In this document: positions 1 to 64,000 of the stretch, one piece after another
Layout: each line of letters starts with the position of its first letter
How positions within the stretch are numbered: the stretch's first letter is position 1
Assembly: GCA_934754475.1 (NCBI GenBank)
Contig: CAKVHV010000001.1
Span: forward strand, 251,670-315,669
Source of the DNA: an uncultured Clostridia bacterium
GTDB taxonomy: Bacteria > Bacillota > Clostridia > Christensenellales > UBA1242
Direction of reading: 5' to 3'
Length of the DNA stretch: 64,000 nt
Notes under the pieces: model-generated
Database searches by the model: none
The model's input: the letters and a program-made list of their open reading frames with translations, nothing else
What the model was told of the DNA's origin: nothing
Made by a program: the position numbers and the translations under genes

Positions 1-1
1 A

Positions 2-64
2 CCTTTCGTTTACAGCGCCAATGACCATTGCTGATATGACAAAAAGTGGGAAAATAAGGGGATA
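2..64 (+). CDS. 3' end of an upstream phage late gene (partial, runs off the window)
   Basis: Open frame from the window edge ending at TAA 62-64, 2 nt before the next start; tightly packed like the following genes. Confidence 0.3.
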
Positions 65-66
65 AA

Positions 67-465
67 ATGGCTTGGAATGATGGTGTTTCAAAAGAATTAG
101 AAGAGTATTTCAATAACATTGGAACATTCGGCGATAAAGCGATTGAAGCTGTGAAAGAGCAAATTGATATAGAAGTAAACAAACTTATTTTACAACTAGA
201 ATCCACAACACCAAGGGGAGCAACACTTGGGCTTTTGAACTCACTAAGGAATTCAAGAATCACAGCAAAAAGGAATTGGTATGGCTATTCTGTGGAGTTT
301 GTTGGACAGGACAGAAAAGGTGTGCCATATCAAAAAATTGCAAACATACTAAACTACGGAACGAGTTTCATAAAAGGAACTCGTTTTATTACAAAAGCAA
401 TCCATAACTTAAAGAATATGGATGAAAGAATCTATGAAAGATTTCAAACAAAAATTAAAAAATAA
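67..465 (+). CDS. HK97 gp10-like phage head-tail/neck protein
   Basis: 132 aa. The pattern TPRGATLGLLNSL...YGYSVEF...VPYQKIANILNYGTSFIKGTRFITKA resembles gp10-family proteins by eye. AAGGGGA RBS; sits directly 5' of the tape measure gene. Confidence 0.45.
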   Translation: MAWNDGVSKELEEYFNNIGTFGDKAIEAVKEQIDIEVNKLILQLESTTPRGATLGLLNSLRNSRITAKRNWYGYSVEFVGQDRKGVPYQKIANILNYGTSFIKGTRFITKAIHNLKNMDERIYERFQTKIKK

Positions 466-477
466 GGAGAGTGGCTG

Positions 478-2061: not shown

Positions 2062-2957
2062 TGCGAAAGTTTTGGCTAGAAAATGCTAGTGGCAAAAAGT
2101 GGGATCTAACACCTAAAAATCCTTATAACAACAATAGTAGTTTTTTCGCAGAACCAGATGGTCTTGGAATTAAAACTAAGATAACTAGTTATGAAGTAGA
2201 AAACACTTGCTTTATTGAAAAAGTAGAAACACAATCGCAAACCATCTCTGGCGATTTGTATTTCAGTAGTTATGAACATTTTACTAAGTTTGTAGAGTTT
2301 GTGGGAAACATAAACACAAATCAAGCAATGAAACTTTATTACTCAACAAATGGTTTTTCAATAGACAATCCTTTTGAAACTGAGTGGTATAAACTTGTTT
2401 TAATCAATGAATTGAAAAAAGGCGAAATAGATTATAAAACAGGGTTCTTGAAAGTTCAAATCAAATTTGCTTGTATGTCGAGATGGAAAAAGGACAAACA
2501 CATAACATTGGAACTAAGTAGATATGGAGAGCCTTTGGTTTATCCATATTACTATCCATACTATTATGGTGGGAGCAACAATCTTGCAGTTGATATTGAT
2601 AATGAAGGAAACTTGCCAACAAGTTGCATTATTAAAGTTGAATCTATAACAGATACACCATTGATTAGACTATTGCAAAATGGAGAAATCATCGAACAAG
2701 CAAAATACAATTTAGTAGTTCAAGAAAATAGTTATCTATTGATAAATAGCAGTCCAGACAAACAGGAAGCGACATTATACACTTTAAGAAACGGGGAATA
2801 TGTAAAAGAGGATGTTTATTATATTGGCGAAAAAGACTATAGTTACTCAAACTTTATAACAATACCAGCAGGCAAATCTAGACTATTGATATCAGCCAAG
2901 AACACGAACTTTGGCAAGGTTACAATTTCATACTCAATACAAAGGGAGTTGGTGTAG
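2061..2957 (+). CDS. distal tail protein (Dit)-like phage tail component
   Basis: 298 aa directly after the tape measure, translationally coupled. The position is typical of siphovirus Dit; the sequence itself has no diagnostic motif. Confidence 0.5.
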   Translation: MRKFWLENASGKKWDLTPKNPYNNNSSFFAEPDGLGIKTKITSYEVENTCFIEKVETQSQTISGDLYFSSYEHFTKFVEFVGNINTNQAMKLYYSTNGFSIDNPFETEWYKLVLINELKKGEIDYKTGFLKVQIKFACMSRWKKDKHITLELSRYGEPLVYPYYYPYYYGGSNNLAVDIDNEGNLPTSCIIKVESITDTPLIRLLQNGEIIEQAKYNLVVQENSYLLINSSPDKQEATLYTLRNGEYVKEDVYYIGEKDYSYSNFITIPAGKSRLLISAKNTNFGKVTISYSIQRELV

Positions 2958-4031
2958 ATGGTAATTTATAAAATTTATGCAAGGAAGGATTTGCAATATA
3001 TAGACGGCGGCGTGGTTAAAGATTATTCAGTAGACAATGATATTGTTTCGGACAATACTAGTTGGCTTACATTAGTTAAGGTGTCAAATGGTTTCAAAGG
3101 CGACATTGTCGCACTTATTGATGGAAAAAAATTGATTGAACTTGGCGTAGTAACAGCAATTGATAACAGTGAGATGAAAATATCTTTCAAAAATATGAAC
3201 GAGCTATTCAATGATACAATTATCAATGTTTTTAAGTTCGCAAACATAATCAATTGCAAGTTCGAAGGTGTTCAGGGGTTGCGAACAATTTTGACTTTTG
3301 CGTACCTAAAAAATGATGATCCAGAGAAGATTCTTCCACTAGAGTTTACAACCTTTGGGCTTGCTAGTCGCTGTGTCTATACGGATGATAGTGACACAAT
3401 AAATCTAAAAGATTTTATAAGATGGATGTTCGATACTTACAATATTTATCTTGATTTTTCAATAGATTTTTCTAAGAACAAGATAATTTGTTCAATAAAT
3501 AAAAACTCGACAGAAGGGCTTGTTATAAAAGATAATATCCTTTTGTCAAGTCCAGAGTTTGATAACAATGATATGCCAAACTATAACAAGGCTTGTTTAT
3601 ATAATAAGGATACAGGTTTTATTGAGGGTGTCTATTATTTGTTAGAAGATAACACTATAACAAGTGATCCAAACAATAAAAAAAGAATATTACCTGTGAA
3701 TACAACGTACATCTCATGGGATGAAACGGAAGCCGTAAAAGAAGGTTATAAAATGGAAGATTTAGTAAAAAGCGAGTTGTGTGGGAACATCTATAATCAT
3801 TGCATTTTATACAAATTATCAAAGCAACAAAACATGATTAAATGCCAGGATTTTAAGTATGGAGATAAAGTGACAATCGTTTATAAAAACAGAGAATATT
3901 CTTCGATATTTACAGGATTAAAATACTCAATGAGCTCACAATATTACACTTGTGTGTTTGGTAAAACTCGAATAGATTTCACGGACAGAATGAAGATTTA
4001 CAACGATAGAAGATATAGCAGGAGGAAGTAA
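2958..4031 (+). CDS. tail-associated (Tal-position) baseplate protein
   Basis: 357 aa, abuts the previous stop (TAG-ATG). Assigned by gene order only. Confidence 0.4.
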   Translation: MVIYKIYARKDLQYIDGGVVKDYSVDNDIVSDNTSWLTLVKVSNGFKGDIVALIDGKKLIELGVVTAIDNSEMKISFKNMNELFNDTIINVFKFANIINCKFEGVQGLRTILTFAYLKNDDPEKILPLEFTTFGLASRCVYTDDSDTINLKDFIRWMFDTYNIYLDFSIDFSKNKIICSINKNSTEGLVIKDNILLSSPEFDNNDMPNYNKACLYNKDTGFIEGVYYLLEDNTITSDPNNKKRILPVNTTYISWDETEAVKEGYKMEDLVKSELCGNIYNHCILYKLSKQQNMIKCQDFKYGDKVTIVYKNREYSSIFTGLKYSMSSQYYTCVFGKTRIDFTDRMKIYNDRRYSRRK

Positions 4032-4032
4032 A

Positions 4033-5124
4033 ATGTCTTATTATTTGAAAGGAATTGGTGACCAGGTTACTGGCAGAAATGAGATTTCACCAATTTTTGA
4101 TGCTAAAATTAACAATTTTTTTGCCAAGAGCAGTCCTTGTGTTATAGGCTCTGAAGTAAATCAACTTAGTGGCACAGTTATTTCAAGAGGTGTAACCGTT
4201 GATTCAGGTATGGCATTTGCATTCGGTTATTTTGGTATGAGTGATGCGGTTGTTCAATTTAATTTTGTAACACCAAGTAGTGCAACACAATATTCAAAAA
4301 TTTATGCAGAATTTAATATGTCATTAAATCCACAATCATTTTCAATTAAAGTAACACCGCAATCAAATTCAAAGATTATAGACCTAACGCAAGATGACCT
4401 GTCAAAGATACCAATGGGTAAATTTCAATTGCCGCTATACTTAGTAACAATTCCAACAAATGGAAAAATTACAATTCAAGATTTAAGAGTTATTCAAAAT
4501 ACAATAGGAGAGATTGATTTTTCGTATGCGTCGAAAAATGTTATTTTGGATAAAAATCGCAACAAATACAGACCACTTGTTTACGATTCATCCTACAACA
4601 GAATGACAACTATTCTAGGTGGTGTTTCAAATAAAGAGTATGAAGTGGAAGTGCCAGGTCGATATTTGGTTTGGCGCTCACAAAATGCATCTGGAATTGG
4701 AACTGCTATTCCTGGGACTAGCAGTCCTGGCTATCTTGCAATAGAATTTCAAGAGCAAAAATTATATGGTTCACCTAAATATTACGAACTTGTAATTGAT
4801 TATTCACCAAATTTGCCAGAAAATTTGATAAGGATTCCCAAAGGTAAAAATGAGAACTATTGGTATTCAGGTGGCAGAATGCACATATTTGTTGAGCCAT
4901 TCACATCGCCAGCTGGGCAACCTAATATTTTATGCTATCCACTAGGAACATTGATAAATTGGGCTGATCACGATGATTGTGGCTCTGGCTCGGCACTTTT
5001 GATTTGTGAGCGCTATTGCATAGATGAAAAAAGAGGTTTGATGTTGCAGTATATAGAAAGAGTTGGAAATACAAATCAAGCCCAAAGAAATTGTGCATTG
5101 ATAGAAGTTTACGCAATCATATAG
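4033..5124 (+). CDS. phage tail/baseplate protein, unknown function
   Basis: 363 aa, starts 1 nt after the previous stop. In the tail module; no motif recognised. Confidence 0.35.
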   Translation: MSYYLKGIGDQVTGRNEISPIFDAKINNFFAKSSPCVIGSEVNQLSGTVISRGVTVDSGMAFAFGYFGMSDAVVQFNFVTPSSATQYSKIYAEFNMSLNPQSFSIKVTPQSNSKIIDLTQDDLSKIPMGKFQLPLYLVTIPTNGKITIQDLRVIQNTIGEIDFSYASKNVILDKNRNKYRPLVYDSSYNRMTTILGGVSNKEYEVEVPGRYLVWRSQNASGIGTAIPGTSSPGYLAIEFQEQKLYGSPKYYELVIDYSPNLPENLIRIPKGKNENYWYSGGRMHIFVEPFTSPAGQPNILCYPLGTLINWADHDDCGSGSALLICERYCIDEKRGLMLQYIERVGNTNQAQRNCALIEVYAII

Positions 5125-5133
5125 GAGAAATAG

Positions 5134-6858
5134 ATGAGCAATATAAAATTAAAATTATTAAGCAATAGAAAATTCACGATTACAAATATTGATGAGAACT
5201 ACTTGCTTGAAGATGAAAACAATGCCACCTCAATTGAAATTGAGTTTCCAAAAGAATACGAAAACTATTCAAAGCGAATAGACTTTATGAATTGCAAAAA
5301 AGAAAAATGGACAACGAGTTTATTTGAGCCAGAGAACGAAGAAAATATTTATGGAGAAGGCTTTGACAAACTCAACTTTACTTTTACTATTCCAGATGCA
5401 ATGGCAAAGCGTGGCGAATTAAAAATTCAACCAATAGCATATTTGGCAGATGGAACAGATACTATTGTGCCATTCAAAATTTTAATCGTAACAATTAATG
5501 ATTCAATTCTTTATGCGAAAACCCAGGGGAAAAACAACCCTGACTTGGTCATAAAAGCATACGAATATAGTAATAAAGCACTTGAATTATCACGAGAGGC
5601 ATTTCAAAAAACGGAAGAAGCAAAGGAGGCGGCAGTATCAGCAAAAAACAGTGCTACTAGTTCAGCAAACAGTGCAACAATTGCAAATGCGAGAGCAAAT
5701 GCCGCCAAAACTAGTGCAGAAGAAGCTCAAAAATCGGCATTAGACGCAAAAATATCTGCTAACACGGCGCAAACAAGTGCAAAAGAGGCACAAGCTTCGG
5801 CAGACAATGCTGATAAGAGAGCGACTAGTGCAGAAACAGTCTCAAAAGATGCTAATACAAAATCAACAAATGCCGTAAATACAGCAAATTCTGCAAACAC
5901 AAAATCCACCCAGGCGCTAGACATTGTGGAAAACTTGACAGTAACAAGCGAAGAACTCCCTTGCACTGAAAAAGTTAAAGTTGAAATAGAGACAAAATCA
6001 TCAACTAAAAGAAAAAACATAAAGTTCTCAGTTCCTGCACCAAAGCAAGGCAAATCATACCGAGCAAAAGGCCCTTGGGAAAACGACCTTGAGTATAGTA
6101 ACAACGAATACTATATTGACACAGTAAGTAGACATGGTTGTACTTATTGGTGTAAGCAAACCAATAAAGCACACGAACCAATAGTCAACACAGAAGATGA
6201 ATATTGGGGTTTACTAGCACAAAAAGGTAGTGATGCAGGTGTAACCATTGTAAACAATCTAGAATCCGAACACGCCGACTATGTTTTGTCAGCAAAGCAA
6301 GGCAAAGTCTTAAAAGAATTGATTGCAAGTTCTATTGAAAAAGCAATAAGTGATTTGGTTAATAATGCACCAGAAAATCTAAACACCTTAAAAGAGATTG
6401 CTGATGCAATAGATAACGATCCTAAGTTTGGAACAACAGTAAAGAATTTGATTAAAACCAATTCGGACAATATAACAAAAATTGTAAATGGAACAACCAA
6501 GGTTAAGAAGTCGGAGAATACGGAATATCTAGTCTCACAGGATACAAGAGAAGCAAACACAACACCTTTGGATTATATGTCAAACTCATCAAGACAAATG
6601 AGAGTAGAGTTTAAGAAACTATCAACAATAGGTGCAAATTCGGTGCTTACAGGCGAGTATTGCCAAATACTGACGCTAATTCCTTGGAGTGATAAATCTG
6701 GTGGCTATCCAACACAAATAGCCATAAACACAAGTGGCATTGCATACAGAACCGGAACAGGCGATTCAACTTGGAACGATTGGAAGATTGTAGTAATAAG
6801 TGCAAGTCGAAGCACACTTGGCGATATAACAGTAAGTTCAATTAACATTGTGACATAG
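5134..6858 (+). CDS. phage tail fibre protein
   Basis: 574 aa. Ala/Ser/Thr/Asn-rich coiled-coil stretch (SAKNSATSSANSATIANARANAAKTSAEEAQKSALDAKISANTAQTSAKEAQASADNA). Fibre-typical motifs YVLSAKQGKVL and APENLNTLKEIADAIDNDPKF. Confidence 0.7.
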   Translation: MSNIKLKLLSNRKFTITNIDENYLLEDENNATSIEIEFPKEYENYSKRIDFMNCKKEKWTTSLFEPENEENIYGEGFDKLNFTFTIPDAMAKRGELKIQPIAYLADGTDTIVPFKILIVTINDSILYAKTQGKNNPDLVIKAYEYSNKALELSREAFQKTEEAKEAAVSAKNSATSSANSATIANARANAAKTSAEEAQKSALDAKISANTAQTSAKEAQASADNADKRATSAETVSKDANTKSTNAVNTANSANTKSTQALDIVENLTVTSEELPCTEKVKVEIETKSSTKRKNIKFSVPAPKQGKSYRAKGPWENDLEYSNNEYYIDTVSRHGCTYWCKQTNKAHEPIVNTEDEYWGLLAQKGSDAGVTIVNNLESEHADYVLSAKQGKVLKELIASSIEKAISDLVNNAPENLNTLKEIADAIDNDPKFGTTVKNLIKTNSDNITKIVNGTTKVKKSENTEYLVSQDTREANTTPLDYMSNSSRQMRVEFKKLSTIGANSVLTGEYCQILTLIPWSDKSGGYPTQIAINTSGIAYRTGTGDSTWNDWKIVVISASRSTLGDITVSSINIVT

Positions 6859-6867
6859 GAGATTAGT

Positions 6868-7890
6868 ATGGCAAGGATTAAATTTAATGGCGTTGATATA
6901 GATACAATATGCCAAAAAAGAACCGACACAAACTATGGTCCAGTGCCAGCAATGAAATACTTCAAACTAAATGGTCAAGAAGCTTTTGATTATGTAAAAG
7001 GAACGAGTGGGTATGTCTTCAGCGAAAATATTGACATACCTATTTCTCTTAATGGCAAGCGAGTTCCTTTCGATTCAATAGGAACAAGACCATTGTCAAT
7101 AGATAGAGGTATGGATACTTCAAACAACGCAAAAATTTACATTCAAAGAGCATCCGATGGAAGAATATATAGAACAGTAGGAAACTCAACCGATAGTGAC
7201 TATACCATTGCACCAGCATCACTAAAACTTCGTGGACTTATTATAAGTCAATGTGGTGCAGGTGGCTCAGGTGGCGGTTCATCAAGTGGAACTGCTGGAA
7301 GTGGTGGCGGTGGTGGTGGATCTATGGTGTTTTACATTAAAATCCCAAGAAACTTTGTTGGAGTTTTGTGCCGAATGGACTTCTCAGATGGAGATGCCTA
7401 CCTTAATTGGCGAGATGTAACAGGTGTTTATTTATTATCAAGTAAAGGTGGAGGCGGCTCTTGGAATGGTGGAGGAGCAGGTGGTGCTGGAACAGGAATG
7501 GTAGTGGAAGGCGATATGCTTAATGTTGCGGCAGGACACATTGATGTTGTTAAAAGTGCAAATGGTGGCTCAGGTGGTGGAACAGGCAATCGTGGTGGCA
7601 ATGCAGATTTGCTAATGCTGATGACATATCCTGAGGACTCGACCTATACCGTTGTATGGTTTAGTCAAGGTGGACTTGGTGGCAATGCTGGTGGCTCTGG
7701 AAATGATGCTGGAGGTGGCGGCGGAGCAAGTTCTTGGGGTGGTGGTGCAGATGGCGCATCACCAGGACAGAACAATGGTAAAAATGGTGGCTACGGAGCA
7801 GGCGGCTCAGGTGGCGGTGCAAAGGTTTGGACTTTTACAAATCGTAGTGGAGGTTCTGGTGGAAATGCTGGAATCTGGTACATTTATTAA
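6868..7890 (+). CDS. glycine-rich tail-fibre-associated protein
   Basis: 340 aa. Globular N-terminus followed by repeated poly-Gly blocks (CGAGGSGGGSSSGTAGSGGGGGGS, GGGGSWNGGGAGGAGTG, GGGGGASSWGGGADG). Lies next to the tail fibre gene. Confidence 0.6.
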   Translation: MARIKFNGVDIDTICQKRTDTNYGPVPAMKYFKLNGQEAFDYVKGTSGYVFSENIDIPISLNGKRVPFDSIGTRPLSIDRGMDTSNNAKIYIQRASDGRIYRTVGNSTDSDYTIAPASLKLRGLIISQCGAGGSGGGSSSGTAGSGGGGGGSMVFYIKIPRNFVGVLCRMDFSDGDAYLNWRDVTGVYLLSSKGGGGSWNGGGAGGAGTGMVVEGDMLNVAAGHIDVVKSANGGSGGGTGNRGGNADLLMLMTYPEDSTYTVVWFSQGGLGGNAGGSGNDAGGGGGASSWGGGADGASPGQNNGKNGGYGAGGSGGGAKVWTFTNRSGGSGGNAGIWYIY

Positions 7891-7901
7891 GGAGAATAAA
7901 A

Positions 7902-8452
7902 TGGCGATTTTATCAGGTAAAATTTATCACAAGATAAACTTAAACAATTTTTCAATTGTAGACAACAAAATTGTGGTTTTGGTTGATTACTATCAAACAC
8001 AAGAAGATAGAGAAAAAGAGAAACAAAACACAGTTCCTATAAATGAATTTTTAACAAAGGCAAAAAACTTTATTGAAGAATTGCAAAATGAATTTTTCAA
8101 ACTATTAAAGCAAAACAATTTAGATCCCAACATAGAAGTTGATGATAAAAAATTACAAGAAATTCTGCAAAGCAATGAAGAAATAGCAAGGAAATATAGC
8201 GAAGGAATATCATTTGGAACAGATTTTGACTTTCTATTACAAAAGTTAGTGTTAGGTAGAACAATCAGTTTTAAACCAGCAAACATGGAAAAATGGAAAG
8301 AACTAGGACTCAACGAAGAGTGGCTGACAGAATCAGCATCAAAACTTGGAACTATGAAAGTTGAACTTTGCGACTATACAGGTCAAAACATAACACCAGA
8401 GTTCTTATATACTGAACTCAAAAAGAAAATAAACAATGCAGTAGATTGTTAA
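7902..8452 (+). CDS. phage hypothetical protein
   Basis: ATG at 7902 preceded by AAGGAGA. The track ORF 7652..8452 extends upstream only because the alternative frame of the GGN repeats lacks stops. Confidence 0.45.
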
Positions 8453-55442: not shown

Positions 55443-55517
55443 GGCACCTTAGCCAAGTGGTAAGGCCCGGGTCTGCAAAACCCTCATGCCTCAGTTCGAA
55501 TCTGAGAGGTGCCTCCA
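55443..55517 (+). tRNA. tRNA-Cys (GCA)
   Basis: Acceptor GGCACCT/AGGTGCC, anticodon loop CTGCAAA, T loop GTTCGAATC, encoded CCA. Confidence 0.9.
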
Positions 55518-55546
55518 ATATTCTATTTCAAATTTGGACAAACTAT

Positions 55547-55633
55547 GCTGGTGTGGCGGAATCGGCAGACGCACAGGACTTAAAATCCTGCGGTGTAACA
55601 ACCGTACCAGTTCAAGTCTGGTCACCAGCACCA
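55547..55633 (+). tRNA. tRNA-Leu (UAA)
   Basis: Acceptor GCTGGTG/CACCAGC, anticodon loop CTTAAAA, long variable arm, T loop GTTCAAGTC, encoded CCA. Confidence 0.9.
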
Positions 55634-55669
55634 AAAAATCCTTTGATATATGGGATTTTTGAATATTAT

Positions 55670-55706
55670 GAGATTGTGTAAAATTTTTACATAATCTCTT
55701 TTTTTT
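55670..55706 (+). terminator. rho-independent terminator after the tRNA-Cys/Leu pair
   Basis: GAGATTGTGTAAAA/TTTTACATAATCTC stem followed by T8. Confidence 0.7.
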
Positions 55707-55742
55707 GTCATTTTTAACACAAAAGTGATGTCAAAAATGATG

Positions 55743-56912
55743 TCAAATTTCATAGTATAAATTATTGTATAATTTATGTATATTTTCTTTGCTATTTGTT
55801 CTATCTTTTTTGATATAAATATCTTGAGTAATTTGTGTTGTTGAGTGTCCTAACCAACTACTAATTAGTTTAATTGGTGTGCCTAAATACATATGATTAG
55901 TTGCAAATGTGTGTCTTAATGTGTGTATTCCACCTTTTATATTTAAACTTTTTAGTATTTCTTTGAATTGACGATATACTTTTTCTTTGTTGAATTTTTT
56001 TAGAATATTTGAATTGTTTATTATAAAGTTTTTTGCTTCGTTTGATAAATCTATAGTTTTTGTTGGCAATTCATCTTCATGTTGTTTTAAGTTTTTTGCA
56101 ATAAGTATATTGTTTTTTGTATCTATATCCTTTTCTATATCTTTATAATTTAATTCGTCTTTTCTTAGTCCTGTTATTAGATATATCAGTATTGGTACTT
56201 TTATTTCGTGGTCTTTTATGTAATTAAGTATTTTTACTTGTTCATCATATGTGAATGGTGGTCTTATGCTCTTTATTTTCTTTTCTTTTATAAAAGCATT
56301 GAATGGATTGATTTTGATTTTTCCTAATTCTAGTGCTTTCTCTAAGCTTGCCTTGAAATATAATATACATTTTTCTTTTGGTCTTGATTTTGGAATTTTA
56401 TTAAAGTAATTTTGTAATTCTGTAGTATCAAGTTTGTTTAAGAATATATTATGAAAATATTGTAATTTTTTAAATAGTATATTTTTTATTTCTTCTCCAG
56501 TTTGAATTGAAACAAATTTTTCTTTGAAAATTCTAAACCATTCATAAAACCAGTCAATAATTTTAATTTTATTGGTTAGATTTCTTTTTATAATTTCTTT
56601 ATTTGCTTGTTTGATTTTTCTATATTTATTAATTATTTCTTGCTGTGTTTTTCCGTAAATATATATTCGGTTTTTGTTGATAGTTATTGTTTTTTGGTAT
56701 CTACCATCTTTTCTTTTTGTAATTGTCATGTCTTGCTCCTTATTATTTTCTAATAATTGACAAGACATATTTTTTTCTTTTTGATTAAATAATTCTTCTT
56801 CAGCTTCAAATTTGCCAACAAAAAATTGGATTATTTCTAAAGCATTTTTTAGTTCTTGCTCAGCTTGTTTGCTGAGTTTTAAATAGTTTTTTGTAAAGAA
56901 TTGGTTATACAT
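55743..56912 (-). CDS. int: tyrosine recombinase / phage-type integrase
   Basis: Catalytic box GGIHTLRHTFATNHM...LGHSTTQITQDIY. N-terminal arm-binding-like ITKRKDGRYQKTITINKNRIYIYGKTQQE. The true start may be the internal Met (MSCQLL...). Confidence 0.88.
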   Translation of the reverse strand: MYNQFFTKNYLKLSKQAEQELKNALEIIQFFVGKFEAEEELFNQKEKNMSCQLLENNKEQDMTITKRKDGRYQKTITINKNRIYIYGKTQQEIINKYRKIKQANKEIIKRNLTNKIKIIDWFYEWFRIFKEKFVSIQTGEEIKNILFKKLQYFHNIFLNKLDTTELQNYFNKIPKSRPKEKCILYFKASLEKALELGKIKINPFNAFIKEKKIKSIRPPFTYDEQVKILNYIKDHEIKVPILIYLITGLRKDELNYKDIEKDIDTKNNILIAKNLKQHEDELPTKTIDLSNEAKNFIINNSNILKKFNKEKVYRQFKEILKSLNIKGGIHTLRHTFATNHMYLGTPIKLISSWLGHSTTQITQDIYIKKDRTNSKENIHKLYNNLYYEI

Positions 56913-56952
56913 GGTTTTAACCGCCTTTTTTTATTGTGTATAATCAACTCCT

Positions 56953-57802
56953 TTAAAACCAAGATTCATCATTATTACTTGTCTCTTTATTAATTGTAAT
57001 TAAGGATTTTTGTAAAATATCTTGTATGTGTTTAATGTCTTCTGGATATATGTATAAACATTTTATACCTAAATTTTTGTAAATCTCTTTTTTATGTTCT
57101 GATTTATTAGCATAATCTTCGTTATTTGTTAATCCAAAGTATTCAATATATATATTTTGATTTTTGACATAAAAATCAGCTGTATATTCTTCATCGTTGT
57201 ATATGATTTTTTTTTTCATATTCATGTAAGTAGTTGTTGTTATAAAGCCAATTGTCAATAATCATTTCTCCTTGACTTCTAACATAATGTCCATCATCTG
57301 CTCTAAATTCTGGTAAATATTTTTTTCTGTAATCAAGTTGATTATCTTCATTTGTTATTGATTTTAGTCTATTGTCTGCTTGGCAAAGAGTGAGTATATA
57401 TTTAGTTCCAAAGTTTGTTTCTAGGGTTATTCTATTTAAATCGTTATTTAAATTTAAATTGTTAGTGTCTAAAAATGGAATAAGGATATTTTTTAACTGT
57501 ACTTGGTTTTTGTTCAATATGTAATATTTGTTTAATAAATATGTTGTTTTGTTACTTTTTATTGATTCAACAAAATTTATTTTTTTTGAATAAAATAAAT
57601 CATAAAATTCTACAATTGAATATGTGTTTGTTAAATTATTTTTTATTGTGTTAATTGTAAAATATGTGGTTCTTCCTTTTTTTCGTATACTATCGATATA
57701 TGATAATTCATTATTTAAATATAAATATTGTCCTGTAATTGGCGATAAGAAATCATTTACATATTCTGCTTTGTCATAGTCTGAAACATACACTGAGTTC
57801 AT
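56953..57802 (-). pseudogene. PD-(D/E)XK-like nuclease-domain gene split by a frameshift in an A10 tract
   Basis: Track ORFs 57191..57802 and 56953..57258 overlap at the homopolymer (T10 on plus, 57207-57216). Joined, they read ...GHYVRSQGEMIIDNWLYNNNYLHEYEKK|IIYNDEEYTADFYVKNQNIYIEYFGL..., an E...D...E-x-F/K nuclease-core pattern. Confidence 0.6.
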
Positions 57803-57817
57803 TTAGATAGATTCTCC

Positions 57818-58135
57818 TTATTGCATTTCAACTAAAGTAGATAATCTACCTAGTTCTCGGTTTAGATTATCATTATTTAATTTTTTTAATAGTATTACTG
57901 CTGAATATTGTTTGTCAGTTAGATAACCAATGTCATTTTTTATTTGTCTACCAACTAAGTAATCTAGTGTTACATTATAGAAGTCTGCGAGTTTACACAA
58001 TGTTTCAATTGTTGGTTCTCTTTTTTCTTTCTCATAGTAATTGTAACAAGTAATTGATGTATTTATCAATTTTGAAATATCTTCTTGCGTATTTTTTTTT
58101 GCTAACCTTAATTCTTTTAATCTCATATTTTTCAC
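57818..58135 (-). CDS. XRE-family HTH repressor (cI-like)
   Basis: LKELRLAKKNTQEDISKLINTSITCYNYYEKEKREPTIETLCKLADFYNVTLDYLVG is a typical HTH_3 domain. Divergent from the rightward genes. Confidence 0.85.
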   Translation of the reverse strand: MKNMRLKELRLAKKNTQEDISKLINTSITCYNYYEKEKREPTIETLCKLADFYNVTLDYLVGRQIKNDIGYLTDKQYSAVILLKKLNNDNLNRELGRLSTLVEMQ

Positions 58136-58181
58136 CTTTCTTGTTTTTTACTATTGAAAGTATAACTATTTAATGTATTTT

Positions 58182-58258
58182 TAGCAATATTTTATAAAAA
58201 ATATGAAAATTTTTTATCAAATTGCTAAAAAACGCTTTGATATTTTATCAATTTGCTA
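58182..58258. promoter_or_regulatory. three operator-like repeats in the divergent promoter region
   Basis: TTATCAAATTGCTA (58214-58227) and TTATCAATTTGCTA (58245-58258) are direct repeats. TAGCAATATTTTATAA (58182-58197) is the inverted version. Confidence 0.55.
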
Positions 58259-58303
58259 TATTATATTAATAATAATAAACATTTTGATAAAAGGAACTTA
58301 GTC

Positions 58304-58450
58304 ATGCCAAAACAGCCAATATCTCAAAGACAAATATTTGAAGTAAATATAGATAGTGCTGAGATGAAACGAAGAAGAGAATCTGATGCTCAAGCGTTTG
58401 ATAATATCACAAATAAATTTTTGGAGAGATTCCATGCATCCAGTAATTAA
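58304..58450 (+). CDS. small early protein (48 aa)
   Basis: MPKQPISQRQIFEVNIDSAEMKRRRESDAQAFDNITNKFLERFHASSN. AAAAGGAAC RBS. First rightward gene after the operators (Cro/excisionase position, no motif recognised). Confidence 0.4.
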   Translation: MPKQPISQRQIFEVNIDSAEMKRRRESDAQAFDNITNKFLERFHASSN

Positions 58451-58562
58451 AACATTAGGTTGGATATTTGCCACCGTAGGTGGTTCTTATCTAATCGTAA
58501 CAATAATTAGATTAATAAAATCCAAGAGGAAGAGAATTCATGATGATAAACCTAAGAATTAA
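58434..58562 (+). CDS. 42-aa single-TM peptide
   Basis: MHPVIKTLGWIFATVGGSYLIVTIIRLIKSKRKRIHDDKPKN. GGAGAG RBS. Overlaps both neighbouring ORFs. Below the track cutoff. Confidence 0.35.
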   Translation: MHPVIKTLGWIFATVGGSYLIVTIIRLIKSKRKRIHDDKPKN

Positions 58563-58752
58563 CTTTGGAGATTGCAAAGTAACAAATAACAAAAGATTAC
58601 ATATAAATATGAATTTAAAGTCTCCAGCAAAATATGTTGTAGAAACTAATCTGTATAAATACTATTTTGACGATTACAAGGAATTTGTAAATAAGTTTAT
58701 TGCGCTTACAAAGCTAGGAATAGATTGCACATGCAAAACACTATTTAATTAA
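58540..58752 (+). CDS. hypothetical small protein (70 aa)
   Basis: ORF with an AAGAGGAAGAG RBS-like stretch upstream. No motif recognised. Confidence 0.4.
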   Translation: MMINLRINFGDCKVTNNKRLHINMNLKSPAKYVVETNLYKYYFDDYKEFVNKFIALTKLGIDCTCKTLFN

Positions 58753-58824
58753 AATTTTATCTTGGCATGGGTTAGATACAAAAACTTTTTTGTAATTTCA
58801 TATTATCCTTTGTTTTTACTTATA

Positions 58825-58864
58825 ACAAGTCAGATATTATTCCATGCCATAATATCTAACTTGT
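58825..58864 (+). other. 16-bp stem-loop whose loop is complementary to an upstream heptamer (possible pseudoknot)
   Basis: ACAAGTCAGATATTAT-TCCATGCC-ATAATATCTAACTTGT (15/16 paired). The loop CCATGCC is complementary to GGCATGG at 58764-58770. Confidence 0.45.
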
Positions 58865-58870
58865 TTACAT

Positions 58871-58916
58871 GCTGGCCTATTGTAGTTAAAAGTGAGTTCG
58901 AGTCTCATAGCCAGCC
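58871..58916 (+). ncRNA. tRNA-like minihelix (acceptor stem plus T arm only)
   Basis: GCTGGCC-N14-GTGAG-TTCGAGT-CTCAT-AGCCAGC-C: 6/7 acceptor pairs, canonical T loop, no D or anticodon arm. The acceptor and T loop resemble the nearby tRNA-Leu. Confidence 0.3.
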
Positions 58917-58960
58917 TTTCAAACTTTTTTCCATTTTGGAGTACTTATGTACTCCGTCTA

Positions 58961-59027
58961 TGCGGAACATGGTGATAATTTGTAAAAGTAAACAAATTAT
59001 GTAAGTTCAATTCTTGCTTCCGTTCCA
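58961..59027 (+). ncRNA. non-canonical tRNA-like element ending in CCA
   Basis: TGCGGAA...ATTTGT-AAAAGTAA-ACAAAT...GTAAG-TTCAATT-CTTGC-TTCCGTT-CCA. Has a T arm with TTCAATT loop, a 6-bp acceptor and an 8-nt middle loop. No D arm and no discriminator, so it is not a normal tRNA. Confidence 0.25.
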
Positions 59028-59051
59028 TTATTAAAATATAGGGGGTTAGAT

Positions 59052-59261
59052 ATGTTTAAAACTGGTGGAAATATATTTACTAGAGTAGTTGTTTCGATAT
59101 TTTCGATTTTAATTACTTTGGCATTGCTATTTGTTGTTGCTGTACTTATATATTGTGCTGTCAAAGGTATAACTTTTTCTGTTGGATTTAAAGAAGTACT
59201 CGGGTTTTTAATTCCTAATGCTGTAAATTCAACTAAATCAAAAATAAATGTATGGAGATAA
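59052..59261 (+). CDS. small membrane protein
   Basis: 69 aa, one long TM (VVVSIFSILITLALLFVVAVLIYCAV). GGGGG RBS. Confidence 0.5.
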   Translation: MFKTGGNIFTRVVVSIFSILITLALLFVVAVLIYCAVKGITFSVGFKEVLGFLIPNAVNSTKSKINVWR

Positions 59262-59265
59262 AATT

Positions 59266-61092
59266 ATGTCAAAAAAATTTATAGCAGGTCTTGCTTTGGG
59301 GCTAGGTATTCCAGCGGTTGCTGGTGGAATAGTATTGGGAGTACCAAGTATTCGAGAACGAATTATTCCTAAGGCAGATAACACTCAATATGTAAAACAA
59401 ATCGAAGAATTAGAAAAGACCAATTCTTCTTATAAATCTGAAAATGATAAACTTAAGCAAGAGAATAATACATTAAAACAAGATAATGTAACTTTTGCTG
59501 GTAGAATACAAAATCTAAACGCTGAACTTATAACAGCAAATAATACGATTAAATCTAAAGATGAATCAATTACATCTAAAGAAAAAGAAATTGCTACTTT
59601 AACATCAGATAAAGAAAAATTGCAAGCAGATTTAGATAAATATAAAGAACTTGCCGGTTCTGATGTAAATTACATTGAACTTGTAAATACATTGCAGACA
59701 CAATTGACTGAAAAAACATCTGCTCTAACAACTGCTACTGCAGAACTGGAGCAATTGCGTACAGACAAAGAAACTCTTACTGCAAGAGTAACTGAGCTTG
59801 AGACTGAGCGTGATCAACTCATTGAAGAGTTGGCTAATTATAGGTCAATGGATAACATAGACAAGCTTAAAGTAGAAAACTTTAATGGTCGTTGGTATGA
59901 AGAAGGAACTTTTAAGTCATATTACACAATTGAAAATGGCGTAGCTACTTTTAATGCCAATGAAGATAAAGGATTGCTTAATAATATCTATGGACAGATG
60001 TATATTATGATGAACACTTCTGGCGGAAAACCGGTCACTTTAAGTGATGACGGAACATATTTTACCACCGAAGATGGCACTAAATATTCAAAGTTTTATA
60101 CAAATACAATTCGTTCTGTAACACCAAACTATTCATTTGCTGGTACTTATTCAAAGGATACTACAACGATTAAAATCAATGCAGACAACACCACAAGTTT
60201 AACAGATTCAACTGGTACATATACTGGAGCGTATGTAGTTACAGCTAAAGAAAAGAATATTGGCGGAAATATAACTATTATTAATACAATAATTGCAACT
60301 TACCAAATAAACGATGAGTCGGTAGAAAAAGTATACACAGTAACATCAAGTGATAATAATTTGGTTGACTTAGATAATTGTTGTTTTAGTAAAATTTCTT
60401 TTGATTCAATAATTCCAAATTCCGATACTTTTACATTGCCTGATAAATATATTAAATTTGTATTCAAAAATTTAAACAAAAGTAAGCAATTTATCTTTTC
60501 TTTAGTTGGTTCGTCTTCTTCTTCTGTTTCTTCTTATGTTGTTAATGGTAAATCTGTTAGTTATAGTCGAAATAGCACTGCTTCTTTTTGGACAGCAAAT
60601 TTTTCGTTTGATAGTTCAACTTCTTTTATTGAATTTTATGTGTATGGTTTTCATTCTATTATAAATAGTTTAAATTTTAGTTATTTTAGTCCTTCTTTTG
60701 CTTTAGTTGATGTTGACTATGTTGGTTATACGGTTGATGACTTGACACCTATAGGGCTTATAAAGGAATTTTATTTTGCCAATCATGGCTATTCTCAATT
60801 TTCTACAGATTGTCAAACAGTTTCAGATTATATAGTTGGAACATACACAAACGAAGAAAATACTGTTACTTTAACATCAGAAACAGCAACAGTAAATAAT
60901 ATTACAGCCACTTCTTATGATGTTATAGCTAAAACTGACGGTGTAGATATATATCAAACCGTGACTATTAAGTATACTACAACAGTGGATGAAGTAGAAA
61001 CAACACATACACTTGTTTTGGAGTTAAAGAACAAAGTACTACTTAGTTCTTTACTAGATAATACAGAAATTGCTTTGACAAAAAGCAATTGA
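59266..61092 (+). CDS. N-terminally anchored coiled-coil surface protein with a large Ser/Thr/Asn-rich beta-type ectodomain
   Basis: TM FIAGLALGLGIPAVAGGIVLGV, about 170 aa of heptad-like sequence (KLKQENNTLKQDN...ELEQLRTDKETLTARVTELETERDQLIEEL), then about 400 aa with no recognised motif. GGAGA RBS before the ATG at 59266. Confidence 0.6.
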   Translation: MSKKFIAGLALGLGIPAVAGGIVLGVPSIRERIIPKADNTQYVKQIEELEKTNSSYKSENDKLKQENNTLKQDNVTFAGRIQNLNAELITANNTIKSKDESITSKEKEIATLTSDKEKLQADLDKYKELAGSDVNYIELVNTLQTQLTEKTSALTTATAELEQLRTDKETLTARVTELETERDQLIEELANYRSMDNIDKLKVENFNGRWYEEGTFKSYYTIENGVATFNANEDKGLLNNIYGQMYIMMNTSGGKPVTLSDDGTYFTTEDGTKYSKFYTNTIRSVTPNYSFAGTYSKDTTTIKINADNTTSLTDSTGTYTGAYVVTAKEKNIGGNITIINTIIATYQINDESVEKVYTVTSSDNNLVDLDNCCFSKISFDSIIPNSDTFTLPDKYIKFVFKNLNKSKQFIFSLVGSSSSSVSSYVVNGKSVSYSRNSTASFWTANFSFDSSTSFIEFYVYGFHSIINSLNFSYFSPSFALVDVDYVGYTVDDLTPIGLIKEFYFANHGYSQFSTDCQTVSDYIVGTYTNEENTVTLTSETATVNNITATSYDVIAKTDGVDIYQTVTIKYTTTVDEVETTHTLVLELKNKVLLSSLLDNTEIALTKSN

Positions 61093-61227
61093 TAAAAATC
61101 AAAACTAGAAGAGATTACTTGCAAAGTAATCGTTATAACTAAATATATGTGTAAGCCTGGCATAACATTGCTAGCACAAAATTAATACTTAAAGTTAATT
61201 AAAAAATAAACTTAAAAAGGAGTTTCT

Positions 61228-61413
61228 ATGAGTTATACAAGCATCAAACTTAGTGGCTGGATTAAGTTGCTAATTGCAATTCTGATTATTGCTTTGATAG
61301 TAGCAACACTAATAATTCTAGCTAATAAAATACCGCAAGTAAATACATTTTTTGTAAACATTTGGACATGGATAAAGGATTTATTTACTGGCAAATTATT
61401 TAAGAAAAAATAA
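61228..61413 (+). CDS. small membrane protein
   Basis: 61 aa, TM LIAILIIALIVATLIILA. AAAGGAG RBS. Confidence 0.5.
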   Translation: MSYTSIKLSGWIKLLIAILIIALIVATLIILANKIPQVNTFFVNIWTWIKDLFTGKLFKKK

Positions 61414-61425
61414 CGGTGGTGTTAT

Positions 61426-62637
61426 ATGGAAAATAAAAAAATTAGAACTATAAATATTATAGTTATTATTCTTACTGTTATTATGAGTTTTCCAATTGTT
61501 TATAATTTATTTTTACAGTTTTATACATTAAAAAAATTGCCAACATTAGTTACATCGACATATGTAACAACAGTTGAAAATTCCCATACTGGAGAAAAAC
61601 TAACAGCTATTGAAGCTAATTATTATCAGAACTACAATGGTAAAGGTAAAGAAATTGTTGAATTGTTATTTAATGTTTATTCAGGTATAGATAAACAAGC
61701 TATTTATTCTCGTGGCTTTCAATTAATAATTGGAAAAGATAAAAATCAATTGTTTTACTATGATAAATATGACGGTGTTTCATTTGAAACTGGACACGAA
61801 TACATTTGGGGTGATCCATTAATAGTAGATATTAATGGGACTACATATGCCGTACGAATGGACGGTAAATATAAGCAGAAACATGTTGAAGATAGAGTTG
61901 GTTCAATAATGACTAAAGGTATTTTTGGTTTGCCTGTTGTTCTTTTTGATATTGTTAAAAATGGATTTACAAAAACTTATTATACTGATGAAAATTATAC
62001 AATTGACCAATTGTTACTAAAAATAAAATCGATTATAAAATCGTCAAGCAATGGAACTGGAGATAGCGTTATTCCTCTTATCGATTTGGGAGATTTCTTG
62101 CATGTATATGAGATAAATGATGGAGTAATTAGTGATACAGCTGTTGGAGAAAATACACTACAAAATAGTTATTTTACAATGAAAACTCATTATGATAAGC
62201 GTGGTATAGTTTGGGCAAAACAATCCATGTTCAATTCAGTTGCTAATGACAGCAATTATAATGTTTCAGGACTTCTTGCTGATGTAGATTATTGGCAGGT
62301 TACAAGCACATTAACATTAACTCAGGATGATTTTGTTGCTCGAAATACTGACAAAGGCAATTATTATTCTTTGTCTGTGGCTAAACTTACTGAGCTTAAA
62401 AATTATGATAATTTGGAGATAAATATTGTATTCGATATAGACAAAATTAAGGATACAGTTTTAGGCTTAGACTATTATTCTTTAATAGGAATTAAAGCAA
62501 AATCCTTGTTTGTTAAAGGAACTAAAACTCAAAACTTTGAGTTGCTTGAGAATAGTCTAAAAGATACAAATATAAAAAATATTAGTTCTTCGAACTGCAT
62601 TACTATTTTAAATAATAATTCGGGGGTGGAACTATGA
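61426..62637 (+). CDS. N-terminally anchored membrane protein, unknown ectodomain
   Basis: 403 aa, TM INIIVIILTVIMSFPIV. No motif recognised. Confidence 0.55.
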   Translation: MENKKIRTINIIVIILTVIMSFPIVYNLFLQFYTLKKLPTLVTSTYVTTVENSHTGEKLTAIEANYYQNYNGKGKEIVELLFNVYSGIDKQAIYSRGFQLIIGKDKNQLFYYDKYDGVSFETGHEYIWGDPLIVDINGTTYAVRMDGKYKQKHVEDRVGSIMTKGIFGLPVVLFDIVKNGFTKTYYTDENYTIDQLLLKIKSIIKSSSNGTGDSVIPLIDLGDFLHVYEINDGVISDTAVGENTLQNSYFTMKTHYDKRGIVWAKQSMFNSVANDSNYNVSGLLADVDYWQVTSTLTLTQDDFVARNTDKGNYYSLSVAKLTELKNYDNLEINIVFDIDKIKDTVLGLDYYSLIGIKAKSLFVKGTKTQNFELLENSLKDTNIKNISSSNCITILNNNSGVEL

Positions 62638-63263
62638 TAAACAAATTATTAGATATATCTACAGTTTTTAAATCGATTGGTAAGATTATTGGTCTAGCGT
62701 TGGTTGGTGTTGTAGTAATAATTTTACTTGTGTTACTTTTAAGGTTTAAAGAAACTAGAAAGTTGACTCTTTATGCTTTGGCTGTAGTAATTATAACCTT
62801 TGGAATTATATCATGTGTAAATATCAAAAGCACTTTTGATACTAAGTCCAAAGAGATTGGAAATGCGTTTCATTTAGAGCAAAAATACGATTATAACATT
62901 ATTGCAGAATTTGATTTTGGAACTATCGAATTTGATTCTGATGACAATGTTAATTACAAGAATATTAAGTCAGAGAGTGCTCGCACTTTTAATGGCGTAG
63001 ACAAAGATTACATAATGTTGTTTAATGGTGAACCTGCAGACATAAACAATGTATCTGCAGGGAAAATGGATAGTACTTTTAAATTTACCTTTTACGATAC
63101 TGAAGAAAAAGTATTATCTATTGCTGAAGTTAGAATTGTTATAGAATTTTTAGCTAAAGAAACTAGGATAACAACAACTATGAAAAATACAAATAGTAGC
63201 GTTTCATATATGGATAGTTATATGGAAATCAACGGTTGTATTATTAAAATTATTGGGAGATAA
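62634..63263 (+). CDS. membrane protein (2 TM) with an unknown ectodomain
   Basis: 209 aa; ATGA overlap with the previous gene. Confidence 0.55.
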   Translation: MINKLLDISTVFKSIGKIIGLALVGVVVIILLVLLLRFKETRKLTLYALAVVIITFGIISCVNIKSTFDTKSKEIGNAFHLEQKYDYNIIAEFDFGTIEFDSDDNVNYKNIKSESARTFNGVDKDYIMLFNGEPADINNVSAGKMDSTFKFTFYDTEEKVLSIAEVRIVIEFLAKETRITTTMKNTNSSVSYMDSYMEINGCIIKIIGR

Positions 63264-63266
63264 ATT

Positions 63267-64000
63267 ATGTCAAAGAAAGCAAGAATTATTTTAGCTTCCG
63301 TTTCAATTGTTTTGGTACTGGTAATTGGTATTTTAATATATATATTTTTCCCTGCTATCAAAGGTAGTATAACTGGGAAAGGTTATTTGACTCCAGAGCA
63401 AGGTCAAGAAATGTATGATAAAGGTTACGCTGACGGTTCTAAAAATGAAACTGAACTAAAAACAAAGATAAATTATTATATGACTTTGGTAGATAATTTG
63501 CAAAAAGATAAAACTAAATTGCAAAGTTTAGTTGACGCAAATAATAATACCATTGCTCTTAATGATAAAAAAATTGCTGAGTTGGAGTCAAAACTTCAAT
63601 CTAGCAATTTGACAATAGAAGATTACAAATCTCAATTAGAATCTTCTGAGAAAAACAATCAAGAATTGCAAGCAAAATATGATTACGAAGTTTCTAACAA
63701 CGCAAATCTTAAGATTGAAGTTACACGCTTGCGTCAAGAAAAATTGGAACTTCAATTGAATTTAACTAATGCTCAAAATAGGATTGCTGAGCTTAATCAA
63801 ACAGTTTTAGGTTATGAAAACTTTATTCAAGGACTTATTGCTGAAAACCAAGTGGTAGCAAAGTTCTATTATGACAATAGTCTTTATTCTGTAATGGTTC
63901 TCCAAAAGGGAGACAAGGCAAATGTAGCAAATCCAACGGATACTACTTACAAGAAGTTCTTAGGTTGGATGATAAACAATCAGCTTGTAGATGTTCCTAA
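63267..64000 (+). CDS. N-terminally anchored coiled-coil protein (partial, continues beyond the window)
   Basis: Not in the track because no stop is reached. ATG at 63267 with a GGGAGA RBS. MSKKARIILASVSIVLVLVIGILIYIFF TM, then coiled coil (KLQSLVDANNNTIALNDKKIAELESKLQSS...RLRQEKLELQLNLTNAQNRIAELNQ). Same architecture as 59266..61092. Confidence 0.6.
   Translation, partial: MSKKARIILASVSIVLVLVIGILIYIFFPAIKGSITGKGYLTPEQGQEMYDKGYADGSKNETELKTKINYYMTLVDNLQKDKTKLQSLVDANNNTIALNDKKIAELESKLQSSNLTIEDYKSQLESSEKNNQELQAKYDYEVSNNANLKIEVTRLRQEKLELQLNLTNAQNRIAELNQTVLGYENFIQGLIAENQVVAKFYYDNSLYSVMVLQKGDKANVANPTDTTYKKFLGWMINNQLVDVP

Follow-up and report, generated by a model that had tools for sequence, protein, structure and literature searches.

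Mimicry of tRNA has been described in plant RNA viruses, in tmRNA, in mascRNA and in a few RNAs of phages. Here we describe a 299-nt segment (positions 58753-59051) of a 64-kb stretch of DNA from an uncultured Clostridia bacterium (contig CAKVHV010000001.1; the whole stretch is called the window below) that holds two tRNA-like elements (TLE1 and TLE2) and belongs to what is probably an inovirus-like prophage. It lies between the gene of a 70-amino-acid (aa) early protein and that of a 69-aa membrane protein; the segment and its homologues in related phages are referred to as the module. Our best reading of the segment is that of a structured RNA module, conserved and derived from tRNA, in a rightward (gene-sense) operon, and the tRNA mimicry may let the phage use the tRNA-cutting enzymes of its host.

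Close parallels are transcripts that are cut at tRNA-shaped elements. In mitochondrial tRNA punctuation and in the MALAT1 mascRNA, such elements are cut by RNase P and RNase Z, and mascRNA is itself a reduced tRNA mimic ending in CCA. The module likewise places tRNA-shaped elements between coding units and includes a reduced mimic with CCA, but it resides in a bacterial DNA phage, is flanked by hairpins, and would be processed only in a way that we infer. In phages P1 and P7, RNase P matures the precursor of the antisense repressor C4 RNA by way of an acceptor/CCA feature like that of a tRNA. Here too the setting is a phage regulatory region upstream of co-transcribed genes, where tRNA processing may form the ends of a small RNA. 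However, the C4 loops complement the downstream ribosome-binding site (RBS) region, a relation for which the test was negative here, and the two have no sequence relation. The tRNA-like domain of tmRNA shares with the module the acceptor, the T arm, a reduced D loop and the CCA, and lacks an anticodon arm, whereas the module has no tag reading frame, no pseudoknot series and no G3·U70 pair.

With tRNAs proper, including those of phages, the module shares the 7/5 acceptor/T-arm stack, the TTCRAnT loop, the GG elbow partner and a discriminator followed by CCA, and the copies in two relatives, L031 and L050, pass the Rfam tRNA threshold. It should be noted that the TLEs of the window have neither a D arm nor a 7-nt anticodon loop, that TLE1 has no anticodon arm at all, that the corresponding loops of L031 and L050 are 15-18 nt long, that ARAGORN makes no call unless introns are forced, and that the elements cannot decode. 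A different kind of parallel is offered by the orientation-specific hairpin regions of Ff phages and Gram-positive rolling-circle replication (RCR) plasmids. The ssoA, ssoT and ssoU origins and the minus-origin and packaging hairpins of Ff phages resemble the module as non-coding, hairpin-rich segments of ~200-300 nt that are orientation-specific and Rep-independent; the module differs in lacking the CS-6 motif, in having tRNA-specific loops and a CCA that such a role leaves unexplained, and in being absent from most sister phages.

Structure of the segment

The initial annotation, which had only the letters and a list of open reading frames to go by, proposed four structures in the segment, and a reading of positions 58400-59400 located all of them (Table 1), some with changed details. 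Hairpin 1, described as a 16-bp stem-loop at 58825-58864, does have a loop complementary to GGCATGG ~55 nt upstream (~70 nt when counted from the loop), CCATGCC making up most of the 8-nt loop, but its bounds are 58824-58865 and its stem is of 7+9 bp with one C/A mismatch. TLE1 is, as described, a 46-nt minihelix with a TTCGAGT T loop, but its acceptor is of 6 bp, the claimed seventh pair being a C·A mismatch. A 15-nt linker is the remnant of its D arm, and it has neither an anticodon arm nor a CCA. TLE2 has the CCA end, the 8-nt middle loop and the missing D arm that had been noticed, and runs from 58962 to 59027. The tetraloop hairpin, here hairpin 2, was found as described. Each TLE of the window begins 5-6 nt past a hairpin.

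The minimum free energy (MFE) of the segment gives z values against dinucleotide shuffles of -2.94 for the + strand as RNA, -5.05 for the - strand as RNA and -3.23 for the + strand as DNA, and 0 of 200 dinucleotide shuffles fold as well as the segment. When the whole 64-kb window was scanned with a descriptor made of an acceptor, a T arm and N-CCA, the five real tRNAs and TLE2 were returned, together with two overlong (>130 nt) poor matches.

A 10-mer, GGGTTAGATA, occurs twice in the window (58769-58778 and 59043-59052), one copy being directly 3' of the pseudoknot strand and the other over the RBS and start codon of the 69-aa gene. The duplication is limited to the window and L057 and may be due to chance.

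Conservation and covariation

Homologous segments are found in six further lineages (L057, L030, L058, L001, L031 and L050), in each directly 3' of the 70-aa early gene; the L001 segment is identical in L052-L055. Two types can be told apart. In type A (the window, L057, L030, L058 and L001), GGCATGG is followed by a spacer, hairpin 1, TLE1, a T-rich box, hairpin 2, TLE2 with its N-CCA and a third hairpin, which has been lost in the window and L057. In type B (L031 and L050), GGCACGG is followed by hairpin 1 with the loop CCGTGCC, a single fuller TLE and the third hairpin; in L031 the T-rich box lies 5' of hairpin 1 instead. The fuller TLE is made up of an acceptor of 7 bp, a D arm containing GG (in L031), a variable region, a T arm and A-CCA, with an 8-bp stem and the 15-18-nt loop in place of an anticodon loop, and scores 49.5 bits (L031) and 45.4 bits (L050) with the Rfam tRNA model, the threshold of which is 29 bits. 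In the alignment TLE1 corresponds to its 5' half and TLE2 to its 3' half, and TLE1 and TLE2 are therefore paralogous derivatives of a tRNA-like ancestor. The earlier description of TLE1 as an internally deleted tRNA fits, its linker aligning with the D arm of the L031 and L050 element.

Across the five type A sequences, a 61-pair structure that includes the pseudoknot is 96% paired, as against 35-44% when the partners are slid. Most of the changes are one-sided and give G·U pairs, and five pairs have changed on both sides. Hairpin 1 is paired in 100% of the cells of these five sequences; in L001, L031 and L050 its inner and outer stems have been substituted by other complementary sequences. 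Hairpin 2 has an invariant stem and a variable loop in the type A set. At pair 6 of the TLE1 acceptor the relatives have C-G, U·G or A-U, with every cell paired, and the TLE2 acceptor occurs as GCGGAA/TTCCGT, GCGGT/ACCGC and GCAGT/ACTGC. The pseudoknot, which had been raised as a potential of the single sequence, is kept in 7/7 homologous segments (with one G·T in L030) and gains support from a double compensatory change in L031 and L050, where GGCATGG/CCATGCC has become GGCACGG/CCGTGCC (A-U to G-C). Between the window and L057 the spacer is scrambled and the helices are almost unchanged. Relatives with other integration sites retain the GCTGG start of the TLE1 acceptor. There are 19 G·T pairs and 2 A·C pairs, an excess that identifies the gene-sense strand as the folding strand.

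Covariation analysis had been suggested as a check, and it turned out in favour: every helix is kept, and both acceptor-like stems, the T arm and the pseudoknot have all undergone compensatory change. The original description of a non-coding, highly structured stretch with two tRNA-like elements is borne out by the sequence, by the shuffles and by the relatives. In sum, the comparison indicates that the segment is a conserved and selected sense-strand structure with two tRNA mimics.

A wider family of tRNA-like elements

A covariance model built from TLE2 (R1) scores TLE2 itself at 73.8 bits, TLE1 at 14 bits and the L001 copy of TLE1 at 27.9 bits; with a later second model (R2), TLE2 of the window scores 47.6 bits. 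A search with R1 found similar TLEs in L008 (14862-15060) and L025 (9600-9860), just upstream of a 139-aa gene homologous to p123 of L049, a circular contig described below, and the neighbourhoods of five more homologues of the 139-aa gene were inspected. At all these loci the ~200-nt gap upstream of the gene has the same layout: a GC-rich hairpin, sometimes with a T run, then 3-9 nt, then a D-arm-less TLE ending in N-CCA, and a long hairpin that begins right after the CCA.

MAFFT mis-registers the 5' ends of divergent TLEs, and covariance-model alignments and an end-anchored count were therefore used. In the R1 alignment of six distinct TLE2 sequences, 90.7% of the cells are paired (42-54% when slid), 12/19 pairs have two-sided changes and none of 500 shuffles scores as high, although the alignment is fitted to the model, which favours its pairing score. 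The end-anchored count avoids this bias by anchoring each of 14 distinct sequences at its own 5' end and its CCA, the window row being off by one owing to its 6-bp acceptor. In this count, acceptor and T arm are paired in 91.7% of the cells (40-53% when slid), with double changes in 12/12 pairs. The T loop TTCRAnT and the N-CCA end are each present in 14/14 TLEs, and GG is found in the linker or D loop in 13/14. The D-armless copies stay below the Rfam tRNA threshold, the best reaching 21.9 bits. Every TLE starts 3-9 nt after a hairpin, and in most relatives another hairpin lies 2-4 nt past the CCA.

A search with R2 of the other ~35 loci that have the p403 core (see below) found no TLE. This absence, and the occurrence of the TLE at two gene junctions, indicate that the cassette is modular and accessory. 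The module is found with three Rep types (PF02407, PF01446 and PF23343). A link to one downstream gene was ruled out, the genes being different (69-aa, 82-aa, a 116-131-aa family and the 139-aa family).

In another clade of these phages (L008, L025, L060-L084 ~1290-1500), the TLE lies between the gene of a large adsorption-like protein and a 136-143-aa gene, and the TLE loops of that clade have a common TTTCCG-like motif.

Known RNA families and coding potential

By the tests run, the module belongs neither to the tRNA or tmRNA families nor to any other family in Rfam. ARAGORN at default settings and Rfam at gathering thresholds have no call in the segment, both finding only the five ordinary tRNAs of the window. 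The Rfam tRNA model (RF00005), used permissively, gives TLE1 14.2 bits, below the threshold of 29 bits, and leaves TLE2 unmatched; at E up to 10, no credible family besides this sub-threshold tRNA is found in 58500-59300. A cloverleaf with a D arm and a 7-nt anticodon loop is absent from both TLEs of the window; the acceptor/T-arm stack, a TTCRA T loop and N-CCA are present, TLE1 being without CCA. For tmRNA, there is no ARAGORN call, and the sole match of a tmRNA family to the module is that of Rfam tmRNA_permuted to L031 (20.9 bits, threshold 47). Rfam holds no model for this module, and full-text literature searches for tRNA-like elements in inoviruses and filamentous phages returned nothing specific.

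Two of the checks that had been proposed had mixed outcomes. The Rfam search produced the tRNA match on TLE1 just mentioned but none to GOLLD, ROOL and similar RNAs, at E up to 10 in 58500-59300 or at E up to 1 in L049, L030 and L031, and with this the idea of a larger ornate RNA of that kind is set aside. ARAGORN, with introns allowed and thresholds relaxed, did make a call, a "tRNA-Thr with a 58-66-nt intron" at 58761-58916 that uses TTGGC as an alternative partner of GCCAG, but we take it to be a weak artefact of the relaxed threshold.

An 80-codon frame starting with TTG spans 58762-59004 of the window. Among relatives the longest open frame varies in frame, strand and length, and because it is not constant we regard the segment as non-coding; the earlier view that it has no credible open reading frame (ORF) holds, no reading frame being conserved in the relatives.

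The host element

L049 (Logan ERR7746349, an independent sample) is a 15,865-nt circular contig with a 28-nt terminal overlap. Its positions 1-8392 are 100% identical to 55608-64000 of the window, and its final 59 nt equal 55578-55636, the 3' part of tRNA-Leu. From this identity and these ends it follows that the window stops within a 15.9-kb element, of which it contains the left 8.4 kb and which also exists as a circle. The element is, judged from these junctions, a temperate prophage integrated in the 3' end of tRNA-Leu(UAA) and running past the window end, and its attP adjoins the integrase.

Outside the window, L049 encodes an HUH Rep of the CRESS type (PF02407 and PF00910). Upstream of Rep, a 449-nt strongly structured intergenic region (L049 12519-12967) has at 12815 a 12-bp stem with TAGTATTAC, a circovirus-type nonanucleotide, in its loop, and this stem-loop region is the probable plus-strand origin of L049. 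An HUH Rep and its probable origin are thus both present on a small circular genome. The relatives have Rep_1 or another Rep (G2P-like) instead of the CRESS-type, which suggests that the replication module has been swapped; the core conserved among them is p403-p209-p772-Zot. A 284-aa protein of L031 matches PF05707 (Zot/pI-type ATPase) and phrog_197 (1.2e-18). The syntenic 286-aa protein of L049 has no family match and shows 22-34% BLAST identity to the syntenic ATPases of the relatives (L031: 26%). On the strength of the integrase, the repressor, the small membrane proteins, the circle, the HUH Rep with its origin, and Zot and Rep_1 in relatives, the host element is probably an inovirus-like, rolling-circle, single-stranded DNA (ssDNA) phage. 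The initial annotation had not recognized a filamentous ssDNA phage, and for this reason a role of the segment in ssDNA was added to the explanations weighed below.

Attachment sites vary among the relatives. The first 28 nt of L057, which has a 70-aa protein 96% identical to that of the window, are a tmRNA 3' end beside the integrase (Rfam 20.3 bits, truncated), and L001 has a tRNA-Arg beside its integrase; with tRNA-Leu, these suggest that different RNA genes serve as attachment sites in different relatives.

Proposed processing of the operon transcript

The explanation that we prefer, at a probability of roughly 0.4, is that the tRNA mimics are processed by RNase P, RNase Z or exonucleases and punctuate the transcript of the phage operon. 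The transcript would fold, and the host enzymes of tRNA maturation would recognize the acceptor/T-arm stack and the elbow formed by T loop and GG. RNase P would then cut at the 5' end of each TLE and RNase Z after the CCA-less TLE1, and exonucleases trimming TLE2 from its 3' side would halt at its CCA. Cutting of this kind would part the early regulatory mRNA from the mRNA of the structural genes, leave an upstream fragment ending in a protective hairpin and, in relatives, a downstream fragment beginning with one, and release small, stable, CCA-ended tRNA-like RNAs. In Firmicutes, hairpin ends protect against 3' exonucleases and RNase J1. Punctuation by RNase P and Z was among the roles first suggested, and we also favour it because every TLE follows a hairpin by 3-9 nt. 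The tRNA parts read by the processing enzymes are kept (the stacked helices, the T loop, the GG partner and the discriminator with CCA). Moreover, the decoding anticodon loop has been lost while tRNA-specific features have been kept where the stems changed.

Several points weigh against this explanation. Transcription across the region is assumed solely from the co-orientation of the flanking genes, and no promoter could be assigned with confidence; a weak sigma-70-like match (9/12) lies at 58726-58755, at the end of the 70-aa gene. The packaged ssDNA strand of inoviruses has the same polarity as the mRNA, so that neither strand bias nor covariation can tell an RNA from an ssDNA structure. The stack of TLE2 in the window has 6+5 pairs only, and in L057 the T loop of TLE1 is TCCGAGT, U55 having been lost. 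A terminator-like hairpin with a T run lies just 5' of the TLE in L025 and L083 and, if it were an efficient terminator, would limit read-through. Finally, processing alone leaves the roles of the pseudoknot and the T-rich box unexplained.

A more elaborate version of transcript processing is less likely than not. In filamentous phages of gut Clostridia, the unit of hairpin, tRNA mimic and hairpin might be a portable cassette, by which mRNAs cut by RNase P and RNase Z would be separately stabilized and a CCA-ended, D-arm-less RNA with a role of its own would be produced. If the cassette reading is true, bacterial viruses would have their own equivalent of the tRNA punctuation of mitochondria.

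The structure is on firm ground, and so is its conservation; the processing mechanism is what we infer from them. To our knowledge, Gram-positive hosts have no RNase E, on which Ff phages rely. If the TLEs serve as signals for processing, they would reveal by what means different mRNA levels are set from one operon in a phage of a Gram-positive host, and the "tRNA scaffold" principle would have a natural example in them. The 14-sequence family, with its strong covariation, is ready as a curated RNA family, which would help to annotate an abundant and almost unannotated group of gut prophages.

Alternative explanations

The fold might act in the phage DNA itself, the hairpins of the (+) strand serving as a complementary-strand (minus) origin and/or a packaging signal, with the tRNA likeness due to ancestry or to recruitment of a host factor; this we regard as unlikely. 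In packaged ssDNA the same fold ("tDNA") could recruit a tRNA-binding host factor and start complementary-strand synthesis. The host element is inovirus-like and would replicate by RCR, the segment as + strand DNA folds better than its shuffles (z -3.23), and the structure is specific to the + strand. Independence of Rep type is also what would be expected of a host-dependent minus origin or of a morphogenesis-linked signal. However, the TTCRAnT T loop, the GG elbow partner and the N-CCA, for which we know of no meaning in DNA, persist among 14 divergent copies. Related phages that share the morphogenesis genes mostly lack the module, which moves between two genomic positions; the separate and more strongly structured 449-nt region of L049 with its nonanucleotide origin could hold such signals, and the ssoA CS-6 motif (TAGCGW) is present in neither strand of 58753-59051. 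The three Rep types and the absence from most relatives argue against a Rep origin and make a core replication or packaging signal unlikely. A Rep origin was rejected on the same three Rep types, on the lack of nick motifs in the segment and on the origin elsewhere in L049. Action in ssDNA would make the module an origin or packaging signal of a new type.

A released CCA-ended RNA might also act in trans, for example by sequestering a tRNA-binding factor of the host (as a decoy or sponge) or as a tRNA scaffold that displays the variable loop, an explanation that we find improbable. Candidate partners are the CCA-adding enzyme, acceptor-end-modifying toxins, EF-Tu and T-box leaders. The tRNA-specific conservation serves this explanation as well as it serves transcript processing, the architecture, in which an extended stem and a variable loop take the place of an anticodon arm, corresponds to an RNA presented on the body of a tRNA, and a TTTCCG-like loop motif is common to the copies linked to the 139-aa gene and to L031 and L050. 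Against this, the loops of TLE2 in the window, L001 and L030 have no common motif, the G3·U70 alanine determinant is absent, the complementarity between loop and downstream RBS is no better than with shuffled loops (z -1.0 to +1.0), and no consistent complementary target is found within the elements. No anticodon-like loop is conserved either, which makes the suggested decoy against anticodon nucleases unlikely. An antisense or anti-Shine-Dalgarno function of the loop was rejected, complementarity to the downstream start being at the shuffled level and no common target being found elsewhere in the elements.

Very improbable, and already largely refuted, is the explanation that the TLEs are non-functional remnants, either decaying captured host tRNA genes (a deleted host tRNA array, as first considered) or relic attP sites from swaps of the integrase module: relatives use varied RNA genes as attachment sites and TLE1 starts with GCTGG, like the adjacent tRNA-Leu, but the real attP is beside the integrase, the ends of L049 being the 3' part of tRNA-Leu, a relic attP would be without the 5' acceptor strand, the stem changes are compensatory and show neither randomness nor decay, N-CCA is kept in 14/14, the spacer is scrambled between the window and L057 with the helices nearly identical, and the GCTGG start persists in relatives that integrate elsewhere.

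Features and neighbouring genes

Table 1. Structural elements of the segment and flanking features of the host element (window coordinates)
Feature	Position	Strand	Description
tRNA-Cys and tRNA-Leu(UAA)	55443-55633		ARAGORN, Rfam
tRNA-Leu(UAA)	55547-55633		attL, left end of prophage; ARAGORN, Rfam
Tyrosine integrase	55743-56912	-	Pfam PF00589
Helix-turn-helix (HTH) repressor	57818-58135	-	
s70, 70-aa early protein	58540-58752	+	Always directly 5' of the module in the close clade
Long-range 5' strand	58764-58770	+	GGCATGG, exact complement of CCATGCC at 58842-58848
Hairpin 1	58824-58865	+	7+9 bp, one C/A mismatch, 8-nt loop TCCATGCC at 58841-58848; MFE fold
TLE1	58871-58916	+	46-nt minihelix starting 5 nt after hairpin 1
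TLE1 acceptor	58871-58876/58910-58915	+	GCTGGC/GCCAGC, 6 bp
TLE1 T arm	58892-58908	+	GTGAG-TTCGAGT-CTCAT, loop TTCGAGT
T-rich box	58924-58937	+	CTTTTTTCCATTTT in window, TTTTTTCCATTTTTCATTC in relatives; conserved in alignments of relatives
Hairpin 2	58938-58955	+	GGAGTAC-TTAT-GTACTCC; ends 6 nt before TLE2
TLE2	58962-59027	+	Acceptor, linker, stem-loop, T arm, discriminator, CCA
TLE2 acceptor	58962-58967/59018-59023	+	GCGGAA/TTCCGT, 6 bp including one G·T
TLE2 linker		+	CATGGTG, 7 nt; GG-containing D replacement, no D arm
TLE2 stem-loop	58975-59000	+	9-bp stem, 8-nt loop AAAAGTAA, in place of anticodon arm
TLE2 T arm	59001-59017	+	GTAAG-TTCAATT-CTTGC, loop TTCAATT
TLE2 3' end	59024; 59025-59027	+	Discriminator T59024; encoded CCA
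69-aa membrane protein	59052-59261	+	First downstream gene; ORF list, also called in L049 and L057

After the HTH repressor, the gene order is small rightward genes, the segment, and membrane and coiled-coil proteins. The 69-aa gene has a GGGGG ribosome-binding site 7-11 nt upstream, 25 nt past the CCA of TLE2. Further downstream, the 403-aa protein (61426-62637) has 168 homologues, all of them unannotated and many on 14-17-kb contigs of metagenome-assembled genomes of gut Clostridia. BLAST of 57800-64000 against 50,697 phage records gave no match, and scans of IMG/VR with a protein profile and three DNA motifs found nothing related; the sole match there, L059, was rejected as a chance match within a gene of a high-GC phage.

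Almost none of the L049 proteins has a Pfam or PHROG family. Outside the window, a protein encoded at L049 14481-15227 belongs to the PAPS-reductase family (PF01507; phrog_424 at 1.6e-37) and has an ATP-pyrophosphatase fold. Two more hairpin-rich gaps, L049 9978-10157 and 10803-11034, also outside the window, have the common motif CTGATGAGATAGC, which has the look of a hammerhead core but no Rfam match, its context being an imperfect inverted repeat. Within the window, positions 7001-8000 form a G+C peak of 0.437, compared with ~0.32 around it, with a strong GC skew.

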